From assembly GCF_055900595.2 (NCBI RefSeq), contig NZ_CM148325.1: a stretch of DNA of 64,000 bases; one strand, given 5' to 3'. Each line of letters starts with the position of its first letter. The stretch's first letter is position 1. The position numbers and the translations under genes were made by a program. Positions 2,770-52,750 of this stretch are shown here, piece by piece. The notes beneath the pieces are model-generated. The model was not told where the DNA came from, did no database searches, and was given only the letters and a program-made list of their open reading frames with translations.

Positions 2770-3137
2770 ATTTTCCCTTTGCTTGGATTTGAGTTACCTA
2801 TTTTGGGGTAGTCATTATAAAACTATTAATTAGTAAAATGAACAAGTTTTCATTTGTTTAGTAATGGTATTGTTTAGGTTTGAAATTATTACGTACTTTC
2901 ATAGCAATAGGTTGGATAAACAGCAGTTCAGGGAACAAGTTGCACTATCTACATACTTTCCCGCTTTCCATTGTATGTTAGGTAATAGATAGCCTTTGCC
3001 CGTAAGACTAAAAATATTAGAAATGACTCATTCGAATACCTTCTATTCACCTTAATATAGGTTTGATTATTGTAATCGTTTAATGTGTCTTATGGATTTT
3101 TTCCTACTTTTCATTTGCATAATATAGGGGGCACAGC

Positions 3138-3257
3138 ATGCTCTTGAAATTAATTATTAAGATATTTAAATTTTACAGCACACAACTACTTTTCGTTGTC
3201 TTATGTGTTGAACGTACTTCGAGTATAGGTAGGGTTGTATATATATTGCGTGGGTAG
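3138..3257 (+). CDS. Candidate small hydrophobic peptide (39 aa, MLLKLIIKIFKFYSTQLLFVVLCVERTSSIGRVVYILRG)
   Basis: ATG preceded by aggggg about 8 nt upstream; very short, so coding status is uncertain. Confidence 0.2.
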   Translation: MLLKLIIKIFKFYSTQLLFVVLCVERTSSIGRVVYILRG

Positions 3258-3354
3258 AGTTAGAATAGAGGAGGCATCATTTATAGAATATTCAAGAACG
3301 TTAACCTGTGATCAATAAATAAAAATATCAAATGGTGTTCAAACATATTTTTCT

Positions 3355-3686
3355 ATGAAAAATCCAGCCATCTATGATGAATTTTTAGATCCATTTTAAT
3401 TAAAGTATGATTATGAACCAATATTTAGCCAAGAATGGTGGTATAGCGCGTATCCAATGACACCGGAAAACGCATCTATGAAGTCCTTGTTTATCTCTAT
3501 AAGAGGAAATCAACACTAATAAAATATAGTGATGTAACACATCGAGCAGGTTGCTCTGATGCTGGTCTTCAACTGTGGCTTAAACAGCTATCAAACTTCG
3601 GTGTTATTGAGATGAAAGAATTATCTTTCTCAACTTTCAATCTCAAAAAGCTAGAGGAAATAGACCTTAATTATTCCACTCTCTAA
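3355..3686 (+). pseudogene. Possible degraded gene: three consecutive +1-shifted open frames (MKNPAIYDEFLDPF / MIMNQYLAKNGGIARIQ / ...KRIYEVLVYLYKRKSTLIKYSDVTHRAGCSDAGLQLWLKQLSNFGVIEMKELSFSTFNLKKLEEIDLNYSTL)
   Basis: An ~80-codon stop-free frame in ~30% GC DNA lacking an ATG near its 5' end, preceded by two short ATG-initiated frames. Confidence 0.25.
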
Positions 3687-3822
3687 ACTTATCTCTTTAT
3701 TTAAAGTAAAAATGAAAATATTATGGTATCAGCTACGTGGTGGTAACTGGTGTTTATGATCATAGGTACACATATACAGGGAACCCTGGAAAACAAAAGT
3801 AATATATTGATGATTTCGTTTG

Positions 3823-4062: not shown

Positions 4063-4282
4063 TTTTTATCTCACCTATCAAATTTAGATAAATAATATAA
4101 ATTAGATAAATAAGATAATCAATAGTTTTTACCATATGAATAATGGATGTGGATTGTTTCTTTTTCATTTCTGATATGGAGTACAAAATGGGGTCACAAT
4201 GAAGAAGCGATGAATGGAGGCGAGCTTGCATCTGCAAGCCTCTTCCCCTAATCTGGCACAAAATATAGAGATTCAACCAAAC

Positions 4283-4400
4283 GACTCGGGGTGCCCTTCT
4301 GCGTGAAGGCTGAGAAATACCCGTATCACCTGATCTGGATAATGCCAGCGTAGGGAAGTCACGGACCACCAGGTCATTGCTTCTTCACGTTATGGCAGGA
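4283..4400 (+). promoter_or_regulatory. TPP (THI-box) riboswitch in the thiM 5' leader
   Basis: Sequence ggggtgcccttctgcgtgaaggctgagaaatacccgtatcacctgatctggataatgccagcgtagggaa matches the classic thiM thiamine-pyrophosphate aptamer; directly upstream of thiM start. Confidence 0.92.
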
Positions 4401-5196: not shown

Positions 5197-5993
5197 AACG
5201 AATTAACGCTCTGACAATTGCAGGCACTGATCCCAGTGGTGGCGCAGGAATTCAGGCAGATCTCAAAACGTTCTCGGCACTTGGCGCTTATGGTTGCTCA
5301 GTGATTACTGCACTGGTGGCGCAAAATACCCGTGGCGTACAGTCGGTGTATCGCATTGAGCCTGATTTTGTCGCCGCCCAGCTCGATTCGGTGTTCAGCG
5401 ATGTGCGAATCGATACCACTAAAATCGGTATGTTGGCGGAAACTGATATTGTTGAAGCGGTGGCAGAACGGTTGCAACGTTATCAGATCCAAAACGTGGT
5501 GCTCGACACCGTTATGCTGGCAAAAAGCGGCGACCCGCTGCTTTCACCTTCGGCGGTTGCTACGCTGCGCAGTCGATTATTGCCACAGGTTTCATTAATA
5601 ACGCCAAACTTGCCCGAAGCAGCCGCCTTGCTCGACGCGCCACACGCGCGCAACGAACAGGAAATGCTGGAACAAGGGCGATCGCTGTTGGCGATGGGCT
5701 GTGGCGCAGTGCTAATGAAAGGTGGTCATCTGGATGATGAGCAAAGCCCGGACTGGCTGTTTACCCGCGAGGGTGAACAACGGTTTACCGCACCGCGCAT
5801 TATGACCCAAAACACCCACGGCACTGGTTGTACGCTCTCTGCGGCGTTGGCTGCACTGCGCCCGCGCCATACAAACTGGGCTGACACCGTACAGGAGGCA
5901 AAAAGCTGGCTTTCATCGGCATTAGCCCAGGCCGACACGCTGGAAGTTGGTCACGGTATTGGTCCGGTTCACCACTTCCACGCCTGGTGGTGA
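5193..5993 (+). CDS. thiD: Hydroxymethylpyrimidine/phosphomethylpyrimidine kinase (GTG start overlapping thiM stop)
   Basis: 266-aa [29 protein letters not shown]... Confidence 0.95.
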
Positions 5994-6057
5994 GCACCGT
6001 ACTATAGCTGCTTTGGTTATTGTCAGTCTTTGGCGCTGACATTCAGGGATGAAACCA

Positions 6058-6876
6058 ATGCAGCTGAGCATCACCAGTCGAAAAAAATTCACCGCTTTAT
6101 TATGCGCTCTTGGGCTAATTTCCATCGTTGCAATTTATCCGCGTCAGACGGTGAATTTTTTCTACTCGACAGCAATTCAGATTAAAGACTACATCCACTT
6201 CTACGGTTATCGTCCGGTCAAATCTTTTGCTATTCGCATTCCTGCCAGTTACACCATTCATGGTATTGATGTTTCACGCTGGCAGGAGCGAATCGACTGG
6301 CAGCGGGTGGCAAAAATGCGCGATAACGGTATTCGCTTGCAATTTGCCTTTATCAAGGCGACGGAGGGCGAAAAGCTGGTGGACCCCTATTTTTCGCGTA
6401 ACTGGCAACTAAGCCGCGAAAATGGCCTGCTGCGCGGGGCGTATCATTAATTCTCCCCGTCGGTATCCGCTTCAGTTCAGGCGCGATTATTTCTGCAAAC
6501 GGTGGATTTCTCACAAGGCGATTTCCCTGCCGTGCTGGACGTAGAAGAACGGGGAAAATTATCGGCAAAAGAATTACGCAAGCGGGTAAGTCAGTGGCTA
6601 AAAATGGTCGAAAAACGCACGGGAAAAAAGCCGATTATTTACTCAGGAGCCGTTTTTTATCACACGAATCTGGCGGGCTATTTCAATGAATATCCGTGGT
6701 GGGTGGCTCACTACTATCAACGTCGTCCGGACAATGACGGAATGGCCTGGCGCTTCTGGCAGCATTCCGACCGTGGACAGGTAGATGGCATTAATGGTCC
6801 GGTGGATTTTAATGTGTTTAATGGCACGGTGGAGGAGTTGCAGGCATTCGTTGATGGGATTAAAGAAACGCCTTAA
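6058..6876 (+). pseudogene. yegX: yegX (GH25 lysozyme-like) interrupted by an in-frame TAA at 6448-6450
   Basis: ORFs 6049..6450 and 6502..6876 are in the same frame (distance 453 = 151 codons); combined length about 272 aa matches recalled intact YegX. Confidence 0.7.
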
Positions 6877-6927
6877 ATAAGAAGCAGTGATATACTCCCA
6901 CCAGACTCCCTGGCAGGAAAAAGACAA

Positions 6928-7674
6928 ATGGAACAAGCGCATACCCAGCTGATTGCCCAACTGAACGAACGTATTTTAGCGGCGGATAACACGCCGCTTT
7001 ATATTAAGTTTGCCGAAACGGTGAAAAATGCCGTGCGCAGCGGGGTGCTGGAACATGGCAATATTTTACCCGGCGAGCGCGATTTAAGTCAGTTAACCGG
7101 CGTTTCGCGTATTACGGTGCGCAAGGCGATGCAGGCGCTGGAAGAAGAGGGCGTGGTGACACGTTCGCGCGGCTACGGCACGCAGATTAATAACATCTTT
7201 GAATACTCGTTAAAAGAAGCGCGAGGATTTTCTCAGCAGGTGGTGTTGCGCGGGAAAAAGCCCGATACGCTATGGGTTAACAAGCGAGTGGTTAAATGCC
7301 CTGAAGAGGTGGCGCAGCAATTGGCGGTCGAAGCGGGTAGTGATGTCTTTTTGCTTAAGCGTATTCGCTATGTTGATGAAGAAGCGGTCTCTATTGAGGA
7401 GTCGTGGGTTCCGGCGCATTTAATTCATGATGTTGATGCCATCGGAATCTCTCTTTATGACTACTTCCGCAGTCAGCATATTTTTCCAAAGCGTACCCGT
7501 TCCCGCGTTAGCGCCCGGATGCCGGATGCCGAGTTTCAGTCACATATTCAATTAGATAGTAAAATACCGGTGCTGGTGATCAAGCAAGTGGCGCTTGACC
7601 AACAGCAACGGCCTATTGAGTACAGCATCAGCCACTGTCGCAGTGATCTATACGTTTTTGTGTGTGAGGAGTAG
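6928..7674 (+). CDS. yegW: GntR/HutC-family transcriptional regulator
   Basis: 248-aa ORF with N-terminal wHTH region (LPGERDLSQLTGVSRITVRKAMQAL) and UTRA-like C-terminus. Confidence 0.88.
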   Translation: MEQAHTQLIAQLNERILAADNTPLYIKFAETVKNAVRSGVLEHGNILPGERDLSQLTGVSRITVRKAMQALEEEGVVTRSRGYGTQINNIFEYSLKEARGFSQQVVLRGKKPDTLWVNKRVVKCPEEVAQQLAVEAGSDVFLLKRIRYVDEEAVSIEESWVPAHLIHDVDAIGISLYDYFRSQHIFPKRTRSRVSARMPDAEFQSHIQLDSKIPVLVIKQVALDQQQRPIEYSISHCRSDLYVFVCEE

Positions 7675-22629: not shown

Positions 22630-24030
22630 TTAAAGAAAGGGAATATAACCCCATAACTTGTTGTGAAGTTCCGGATTGCAGGTAAAAAGCGCCTGAAGTT
22701 GCTGACGCTGAGGAGCATTTGGTTGAATGTCCGAAAGATTGAAATTGCGTTGCCATATCGCGAGCTGTTTACCTGCAAATTCTTCAGTTAGCTTGTGTTG
22801 CGATTGCAGAAGAAGAATTAAACAGGCCCATTTGTTCAAGTTATGATACAGCCGACAATATGCGCAAGCATGTTTAACTGATGGTGCGTTTTCCAGCAAC
22901 TGACGTATTTCCTCGAACGTGAGCGGAACTCGACACCATACACAGATGTTAACCATAAATCGAAGCCCGGAGGCGTCCGGGTTAGCCAGTGTGGTCAGAA
23001 TAATCCCTTTGACACCACCATCAGGATTGGCTTTCGCAAGAATATACATAGCGGCTAATCGCAGTGGGAATACATCCTGTGATAATCCCCATTCTGCCAG
23101 TTTTAAAATATTGGCATCATGAATGGAGTCCAGCCCGTATAAAGCTGCCCGGCGCTGTGAGGGAGTATATTCAGTCGAGGTGACAACATGACGCCAGAAT
23201 TGCACAACATCCATGACGTCATTAAGCATGTTTTTAGCGCGTAGACGGATCAACATATTGTTATCCAGCAGTAATGCGCTGTACAACGCCGGAGGAATTT
23301 CTATAGCTCGGTCAGTAAGGCTAAACAACGTTGCTTGTCGAATACGCGGCCAGCGGTCTTTTAACAGACGAGTTAATACCGCTTCGCTTAACGGTAATTG
23401 TTGACGCAGCCAGTGGGTGACCGCCAGCATTCGTAAACCTTCGTCGGGCTGCTTGAGTATTAAAAGCAGCGAAGATTCATCATTAAAGTAGCCATATTCA
23501 ATCAGCGTTTGTAATACTGCGCGGGAGAGTTTTTTATCAGGGCAAGTAAGCCAACACGTTAATTGTGGACGGCTATTTTCTGTCAATAAAAATCTAAGTA
23601 TCTCGTCTACAAATGCACGGTGATCGTAACGCTGGCATTGGAGAAGGTTACGTATCAAGGGAAGATTAACGGCAAATGCCGCTGCATTCTTATCCTTCTT
23701 TAAATGACGTAACGCTATGGTTGCAGCAAGGCGAACCTCTTTTACCCAGTCATTAGCTGCAAGTAATAATTCTTCTATAGCTGCAACATCCTCTTTTTGT
23801 CCCAGACATTGCACGGCCTTTTCTCGTATATATCCATTGTGGTGATGGGTAAGCTGGCAAAGAACCAGAGTATCGTTGAGATCACAATCATGCGCTATAT
23901 AATTGCCTGGATCGGCTATCATCGACTGGAGTTGTTGCTGGATAAGAAATAATTCACAGTCAACAGAATTATTCATTTCGACGTTAAACAAAACCCTGCG
24001 TGTAAATAATGTACGCAATCCTTTGAGCAT
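22630..24030 (-). CDS. Hypothetical 466-aa protein with HEAT/ARM-like repeat character; not expected at this position from recalled K-12 synteny
   Basis: Long ORF with aagga RBS 7 nt upstream of ATG; lower GC than neighbours; repeat-like segment EKAVQCLGQKEDVAAIEELLLAANDWVKEVRLAATIALRHL. Confidence 0.7.
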   Translation of the reverse strand: MLKGLRTLFTRRVLFNVEMNNSVDCELFLIQQQLQSMIADPGNYIAHDCDLNDTLVLCQLTHHHNGYIREKAVQCLGQKEDVAAIEELLLAANDWVKEVRLAATIALRHLKKDKNAAAFAVNLPLIRNLLQCQRYDHRAFVDEILRFLLTENSRPQLTCWLTCPDKKLSRAVLQTLIEYGYFNDESSLLLILKQPDEGLRMLAVTHWLRQQLPLSEAVLTRLLKDRWPRIRQATLFSLTDRAIEIPPALYSALLLDNNMLIRLRAKNMLNDVMDVVQFWRHVVTSTEYTPSQRRAALYGLDSIHDANILKLAEWGLSQDVFPLRLAAMYILAKANPDGGVKGIILTTLANPDASGLRFMVNICVWCRVPLTFEEIRQLLENAPSVKHACAYCRLYHNLNKWACLILLLQSQHKLTEEFAGKQLAIWQRNFNLSDIQPNAPQRQQLQALFTCNPELHNKLWGYIPFL

Positions 24031-35864: not shown

Positions 35865-36005
35865 AGCGGGACGCTGAAACGGGAAAGCCCCTCCCGAGGA
35901 AGGGGCCTTAAATAAGGAAAGGGTCATGATGAAGTGGATCATCATCGTGGTGCTCTTAGTCGTTAGCTACCCAGCTTACTAAGACTACCAGGGCGGGGGA
36001 AACCC
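35865..36005 (-). ncRNA. sib: Sib-family antisense sRNA (antitoxin), copy 1; boundaries approximate
   Basis: Inferred from known Sib/Ibs architecture; terminator-like hairpin aagcccctcccgaggaaggggcctt at 35885-35908. Confidence 0.5.
35926..35982 (+). CDS. ibs: Ibs-family type I toxin peptide (MMKWIIIVVLLVVSYPAY)
   Basis: Matches Ibs peptide pattern; RBS aaggaaagg upstream. Confidence 0.8.
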   Translation: MMKWIIIVVLLVVSYPAY

Positions 36006-36189
36006 CGCTCAACCCTCACTCCTGAAAATATGCCTTCACGGTCAGAATGTCAATCCGCAGGCTTTGCAGTCTGCGATCCTGCCAGCAAATATTCTTTGCG
36101 AGTCGTTACGCAATAATCACAGATGAAACTATTTTATCTACGCGTTAGCGATAGACTGCATTCAGGGCAAAAGGAGGTAGGCCGACGAT

Positions 36190-36335
36190 TTCAGCGGGAC
36201 GCTGAAACGGGAAAGCCCCTCCCGAGGAAGGGGCCTTAAATAAGGAAAGGGTCATGATGAAGCTACTCATCATCGTGGTGCTCTTAGTCATTAGCTTACC
36301 GGCTTACTAAGACTACCAGGGCGGGGGAAACCCCG
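36190..36335 (-). ncRNA. sib: Sib-family antisense sRNA, copy 2; boundaries approximate
   Basis: Inferred from repeat architecture. Confidence 0.5.
36254..36310 (+). CDS. ibs: Ibs-family type I toxin peptide (MMKLLIIVVLLVISLPAY)
   Basis: Second repeat unit. Confidence 0.8.
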   Translation: MMKLLIIVVLLVISLPAY

Positions 36336-36519
36336 CTCTACCCTCACTCCTGAAAGTATGCTTTCACAATCAGATTGTCAATCCGCAGGCTTTGTAGTCT
36401 GCGATCCTGCCAGCAAATATTCTTTGCGAGACGTTACGCAATAATCACATGTGAAACTATTTTATCTGCAAGTTAGCGATAGACTGCTTGCATGGCGAAA
36501 GGAGGTAGGCCGCCGATTT

Positions 36520-36665
36520 CAGCGGGACGCTGAAACGGGAAAGCCCCTCCCGAGGAAGGGGCCTTAAATAAGGAAAGGGTCATGATGAAGCTACTCATCA
36601 TCGTGGTGCTCTTAGTTATTAGCTGGCCAGCTTACTAAGACTACCAGGGCGGGGGGAAACCCCGC
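36520..36665 (-). ncRNA. sib: Sib-family antisense sRNA, copy 3; boundaries approximate
   Basis: Inferred from repeat architecture. Confidence 0.5.
36582..36638 (+). CDS. ibs: Ibs-family type I toxin peptide (MMKLLIIVVLLVISWPAY)
   Basis: Third repeat unit. Confidence 0.8.
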   Translation: MMKLLIIVVLLVISWPAY

Positions 36666-36856
36666 TCTACCCTCACTCCTGAAGTTATGTTACTCCACCC
36701 TTATTGTCAATCTGTAAGTCCACGTTCTTGCGGGGCGAATAGCAAAACCCTCTGCGCTTATGGGCCGAATTCTGAAAGTTGCTTTGCCTGCTCTTATTTC
36801 ATTGTTGCAGTCGGTATGATACCGGACCTCAATAATTCTCTAAGAAAGGATTTCTT

Positions 36857-52270: not shown

Positions 52271-52738
52271 AGTAAGTACAAAACCTATTCGTTGTATGAC
52301 AAATGTCACAATTCGATCATGGATAAATCGGGGCAAAAATGCAATGTTGCAGCACTATTTATCTCATATTATTTGAGGTTTATAACCTCACATTATCCCT
52401 GAATTAAAAGTGGTAATAATAAAACATTATTTAAGAAATATCGCATGTGGAGACACTATATTAAATATTGTCAACCTAAAGAAACTCCTAAAAACCATAT
52501 TGAATGACACTTAATATAATTCTTAAAAATAGCCAATTGCCGAATTGTTACCTTGCCTGCTATTCCGTTAGCTGTAACACTTCCTCCTGCATTATGGGAA
52601 GCCAATATTCAATTACCATAATGCCACCTTATATCTGGAAAATTAATTCACGGAATAACGCTTTTTCATAATCAACTGCATGATGAAAGAGTTAGAAAAT
52701 CTAAACTAAATCAGTGTATTGGTAGCTAAAAAGCCAGG

Positions 52739-52750
52739 GGCGGTAGCGTG
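52739..52750 (+). promoter_or_regulatory. ops element (GGCGGTAGCGTG) in JUMPStart, RfaH recruitment site in the wza leader
   Basis: Exact ops consensus GGCGGTAGnnTG about 180 nt upstream of wza. Confidence 0.85.

Follow-up and report, generated by a model that had tools for sequence, protein, structure and literature searches.

Among known systems, the closest to the gene considered here is yegX of E. coli K-12 (b2102, NP_416605.2), an uninterrupted reading frame of 272 codons that lies in the gene order thiMD-yegX-yegW/ggaR-yegVUT and is annotated as encoding the 'putative glycosyl hydrolase YegX'. No paper characterising the function or activity of YegX was found in the literature searched. 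Keio delta-yegX strains are viable, and their phenotypes with boric acid and epetraborole are no more than mild. The thiD/yegX spacer holds a mapped, constitutive sigma-70 promoter. Structural precedents come from the GH25 muramidases, including a putative lysozyme of B. anthracis (2WAG), an autolysin of C. perfringens (4KRU/4KRT), and Cellosyl of Streptomyces (1JFX). The YegX sequence studied here, when repaired at its interrupted codon (codon 131 read as Tyr), aligns with these proteins over residues ~65-265 with E values of 6e-33 to 5e-28, and an N-terminal Asp and a D-x-E motif are conserved in the printed alignments with 2WAG and 4KRU/4KRT. Unlike the solved muramidases, YegX carries an extra N-terminal region of ~65 residues that includes a hydrophobic export or anchor segment. 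A further precedent is provided by the single-nonsense pseudogenes of E. coli and Shigella (labelled 'internal stop' by PGAP), in which one stop codon interrupts a syntenic orthologue and is inherited clonally.

The DNA analysed here, referred to as the window, is a stretch of 64,000 nucleotides of E. coli chromosome (contig NZ_CM148325.1 of assembly GCF_055900595.2). It begins at the end of yehA and continues through rcnBAR, thiMD, yegX, yegW(ggaR), yegVUT, fbaB, and the gat genes, and then onward through baeSR-mdtABCD, the ibs/sib repeats, yegL...asmA, and the wca (colanic acid) cluster. The order thiM-thiD-yegX-yegW-yegV-yegU-yegT is the same in relatives and in K-12, identifying a syntenic orthologous locus, and the annotation of the orthologues marks the window's yegX as the counterpart of b2102. 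Outside the stop, the K-12 protein and the window's allele differ by six amino acids. The K-12 gene is uninterrupted, whereas the window allele has a premature TAA at codon 131; in this respect it differs in nothing of substance from the PGAP 'internal stop' pseudogenes.

Structure of the interrupted yegX gene

The yegX pseudogene occupies 6058..6876 on the plus strand, a span of 272 codons whose start and end are those annotated in its orthologues. The premature TAA lies at 6448..6450 (plus strand), where base 6450 is A in the window and T in every intact allele examined. The reading around the stop is ...GGG GCG TAT CAT TAA TTC TCC..., such that the base after the stop is T and the context in the message is UAAU. 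By inspection of the sequence, the site is outside any homopolymer or repeat.

The first-pass annotation had proposed that two open reading frames, 6049..6450 and 6502..6876, are the halves of a GH25-type YegX of ~272 amino acids split by a point mutation in a TAT codon. Much of that proposal has held. The two frames are listed in a common reading frame, translation of 6049-6876 encounters a single internal stop directly after ...LLRGAYH, and the TAA is at 6448-6450 as described; comparison with ten intact alleles, all TAT at this codon, bears out the point mutation. If intact yegX in other strains also ended at this position the idea of a split gene would fail, and instead all intact alleles read through. 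The start at 6049 has to be corrected, as all annotated relatives and K-12 begin at the ATG at 6058 (MQLSIT...). A Shine-Dalgarno-like AGGGA at 6045-6049 is suitably spaced for this ATG (6058-6060; the two elements together span 6045..6060, plus strand); since it directly adjoins position 6049, it does not suit a start there.

Repaired YegX matches the Pfam GH25 profile PF01183 over residues 70-245 (E=7e-55), covering profile positions 1-180 of 180 with a score of 186.5 bits (cut-off 27), which places the protein in the GH25 family. As actually encoded, the two pieces reach no further than profile positions 1-56 and 82-180 respectively, and with TAA at codon 131 the window does not encode one unbroken polypeptide with the whole GH25 barrel. 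The domain is thus cut after profile position 56, unlike that of the solved muramidases. The N-terminal fragment (6058..6447, plus strand, 130 aa) contains profile positions 1-56 together with Asp71 (codon 6268-6270), preceded by a basic n-region and a hydrophobic segment at residues ~8-27 that form a predicted export signal or membrane anchor. The C-terminal reading frame (6502..6876, plus strand, 124 aa, with an in-frame GTG start) contains profile positions 82-180 along with Asp161 (6538-6540) and Glu163 (6544-6546), and is devoid of an export signal. Asp71, within the sequence GIDVS, and Asp161-Val-Glu163, within LDVEE, align with the catalytic motifs of 2WAG and 4KRU/4KRT, and the stop falls between Asp71 and the Asp161-x-Glu163 motif.

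Origin of the stop at codon 131

Of 5,426 complete RefSeq E. coli genomes searched by megablast with positions 6000-6900, 5,424 contain the locus. The eight closest genomes (Z0117EC0005, AST85, E200086, E400634, E500002, E600003, 100117, and 100248) are 99.9% identical with one mismatch each, and the next best match is at 98.4%. When the window is compared with one relative, strain Z0117EC0005, a single base differs across 6,901, and this base is 6450 (A here, T there). When the first 36 kb is aligned, codon 131 is TAT in seven of seven sister genomes; the eighth shows a single mismatch to the window over 901 bases, and the more distant SMS-3-5 and K-12 also have TAT (Tyr131). Because the relatives, SMS-3-5, and K-12 all carry TAT, the alignments indicate that the change at 6450 is a derived T>A transversion, converting Tyr131 (TAT) to an ochre codon (TAA), or Y131*. 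An in-frame stop is thereby found where orthologues and outgroups have a sense codon, the defining property of a nonsense pseudogene. Apart from the stop there are no differences from the sister allele over the 819 bp of yegX, and thus no secondary decay.

Within the first 36 kb, 13 fixed differences set the window apart from the sister clade, and SMS-3-5 served as the outgroup for polarising them. Seven are derived on the window's branch, 6450 among them, five are derived in the sister clade, and one has no clear direction. All eight coding differences in this 36 kb are nonsynonymous or nonsense, with seven at first codon positions, while the next 24 kb (to 60 kb) contains three synonymous and two nonsynonymous differences. 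This odd pattern was considered as a possible mark of artificial or erroneous sequence, and the idea was dropped, as the total nonsynonymous to synonymous ratio of ~10:3 is typical of very recent divergence. Three of the seven window-derived SNPs (10962, 10997, and 12458) lie between genes, in the yegT-fbaB and fbaB-gatY spacers, of which the former is the place of the GgaR operator in K-12.

The first-pass annotation had left the choice between a recent pseudogenisation and a sequencing error. If base 6450 were truly T, yegX would be intact and the stop would be a fault of sequencing or assembly. An error of this kind would account for two observations, namely that no identical 61-mer around the site is present among the 5,426 complete RefSeq E. 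coli genomes, and that base 6450 is the sole difference from one relative in 6.9 kb. Separate SRA runs assembled de novo, and also a 5.35-Mb GenBank contig, nevertheless show the same A. Among these, the Logan assembly for SRR15731980 has the A and matches the window without a difference over 6,393 bp (100% identity); it could derive from the same isolate. The assembly from SRR18425570 has A at the stop site along with two other SNPs relative to the window, and the GenBank contig (GCA_964249055.1) has A at 6450, the derived T at 10997, and the ancestral T at 10962. Since other sites differ from the window, both of these clearly represent other isolates. The truncated products are also widely recorded, with exact matches to the 130-aa N-terminal product (MQLSIT...GAYH) on 381 contigs (NCBI, ENA, and Logan) and to the 124-aa product of the C-terminal reading frame on 481 contigs. 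The presence of TAA in assemblies of other isolates, together with these contig counts, refutes a sequencing error, and the position of the site away from homopolymers and repeats speaks against one as well; the chance that the true base is T is negligible. None of the RefSeq complete genomes searched belongs to the lineage with the TAA allele.

Of the two options, then, pseudogenisation stands and error falls. Whether the event deserves to be called recent depends on the measure: the lack of further decay in yegX agrees with that description, while the age of the mutation relative to its lineage does not. The GenBank contig has TAA and yet retains the ancestral base at 10962, which means that Y131* arose before one well-sampled E. 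coli clonal lineage diversified. We hold with great confidence that a real, vertically inherited T>A change in the ancestor of this lineage turned a conserved, predicted periplasmic GH25 muramidase into a pseudogene.

Predicted consequences and selection

UAAU, a TAA with T as the next base, terminates strongly in E. coli, and translation would accordingly be expected to end at codon 131. The resulting product would be a 130-aa exported or anchored stub in which the DxE motif and over half of the barrel are missing. Any product restarted at the GTG at 6502 would be without an export signal, Asp71, and residues 131-147, and hence no active enzyme would be made. Such a loss would presumably be tolerated, since YegX is dispensable under many conditions. 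With the catalytic residues separated and the C-terminal fragment lacking an export signal, loss of yegX function is the best reading and is very likely correct, as judged from the sequence. A fragment may nonetheless keep some residual function, as might be imagined for a pseudogene free of secondary decay.

A gene that still works, by means of readthrough, a suppressor tRNA, or a two-piece enzyme assembled from the N-terminal fragment and a C-terminal fragment started at GTG 6502, would fit the otherwise undamaged state of both halves and the abundance of the lineage. The in-frame GTG, 51 nt past the stop, is indeed picked up by gene callers. The undamaged state is, however, what is expected of a young pseudogene, and by reading of the sequence no Shine-Dalgarno element is found upstream of GTG 6502. 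A C-terminal fragment without an export segment would be in a different compartment from the N-terminal fragment, and 17 residues (131-147) would be absent from the barrel of any two-piece enzyme. As for the decoding of the stop, no tRNA genes were found in the window and no Rfam or recoding RNA element was found at yegX, and a suppressor tRNA or recoding element was dropped on these grounds. Programmed readthrough is equally ill suited to a stop that is confined to one lineage, has the terminating UAAU context, and has no Rfam element at the site. Taken with these points, retained function of the interrupted gene is very improbable.

Y131* yegX is an ordinary lineage-specific pseudogene. For annotation, the locus is best given as one pseudogene (6058..6876) with an internal stop, and not as the two 'GH25' genes called on hundreds of contigs. 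A6450 provides a clean one-base marker that separates the lineage from its closest sequenced relatives, and, as a natural knockout, the allele could serve in the search for a YegX phenotype, the protein being a conserved but uncharacterised muramidase homologue of E. coli. Beyond annotation, the significance of the finding is small.

Intact yegX alleles show dN/dS values of 0.06-0.18 between them, a sign of purifying selection, and loss of the gene may therefore carry some cost. Other natural knockouts exist. Two are confirmed at the DNA level, Y129* (TAG; ENA ERZ27265175) and Q141* (TAG; SRR24326590 and about 66 index blocks), and several apparently frameshifted yegX products are recorded in other E. 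coli backgrounds. Like the stop in the window, both nonsense mutations fall between Asp71 and the DxE motif and within 10 codons of codon 131. They are independent events on other haplotypes, which differ at 35-38 nucleotides from those of the window's clade, and create TAG rather than TAA. A recorded product of 128 aa was considered as an indication that Y129* is common, and was set aside because most of the contigs concerned merely end at that point (as in L018), the real TAG being present only in L017.

The loss of yegX might have been selected and not merely tolerated, with, for instance, a reduced release of peptidoglycan fragments or a lower envelope cost aiding expansion of the lineage. 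Records of the TAA allele outnumber exact copies of the intact sister allele ~5-fold (381 vs 72 contigs), and the knockouts elsewhere (Y129*, Q141*, and the apparent frameshifts) are independent. Contig counts, however, reflect sampling and not fitness, and scattered knockouts are expected in any non-essential gene. The clear purifying selection on intact alleles also tells against selected loss, as does the retention of most of the locus in at least 5,421 of the 5,426 complete genomes. On the window's branch the nonsense mutation is one of seven derived changes in 36 kb, and the ~10:3 ratio fits near-neutral recent divergence. Selected loss is thus unlikely. A stronger version, in which the loss is both convergent and adaptive, would point to the clustering of nonsense mutations at codons 129, 131, and 141 and to the excess of the TAA allele over its intact sister; we regard it as slightly less likely still. 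If it were true, silencing of a predicted periplasmic muramidase would benefit some host-associated clones, for example through release of less immunostimulatory peptidoglycan. Adaptive loss is without specific support, and the tolerated loss of a dispensable gene remains our preferred account.

Downstream of yegX lies yegW/ggaR, the repressor of yegTUV, with its ATG at 6928. The spacer that separates it from yegX contains TGaTATACT (6888..6896, plus strand), which reads as a candidate extended -10 promoter element ~30 nt before this ATG and would protect yegW against any polarity caused by the stop. Having no -35 element, it was not listed by a consensus scan of 5700-7100 for promoters and terminators, whose counts did not exceed those for shuffled sequence. 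A Rho-mediated polar effect on yegW/ggaR was also considered and appears unlikely, as the untranslated stretch 6451-6927 is G-rich and not C-rich and TGaTATACT is present in the spacer.

Other features of the window

Lesions in single genes are found elsewhere in this clade. The yehA gene, which ends at ~149 of the window, is independently pseudogenised in two sister genomes, through an internal stop in AST85 and a frameshift in Z0117EC0005, indicating that single-lesion pseudogenes are common in the clade. A HEAT-repeat gene (22630..24030, minus strand, 466 aa) presents the mirror image of the yegX case. It is one intact reading frame in the window, where codon 112 is AAG (base 23697), and has TAG at this codon in seven of seven sister genomes examined, where it is annotated as two CDSs. 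The exact intact HEAT-repeat protein is found on 479 contigs.

Identity to the sister clade is ~99.95% up to ~60.4 kb of the window. Differences crowd together from 60,461, marking a recombination breakpoint. The segment beyond it (~60461..64000) comprises the 3' end of wcaD, wcaE, wcaF, gmd, and fcl. Over 60600-64000 the identity to the sister clade is 95.8%, and that to E. coli B/BL21/REL606, strain C, and M160133 is 100%.

Upstream of the thi genes, about 1 kb (2770..3822) corresponds to no annotated feature in any relative. It has a hypothetical gene on one side and, on the other, a small gene annotated 'HTH-like domain' that precedes the thiM TPP riboswitch, and the equivalent flank in SMS-3-5 holds prophage genes. 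The riboswitch itself (4277..4373, before thiM) is matched in Rfam above the gathering score and in its expected place, as are the naRNA4 REP-type element after fbaB (12228..12298), the CyaR sRNA (20895..20980), and the JUMPstart element upstream of wza (52712..52750). Three tandem ibs/Sib type I toxin-antitoxin units are present at 35911..36710, with three Rfam SIB_RNA matches of 136-140 bits and small Ibs reading frames encoding MMKWIIIVVLLVVSYPAY, MMKLLIIVVLLVISLPAY, and MMKLLIIVVLLVISWPAY. In the sister genome E400634 this region contains an IS421 insertion, and the other sister loci that were fetched end inside the region.
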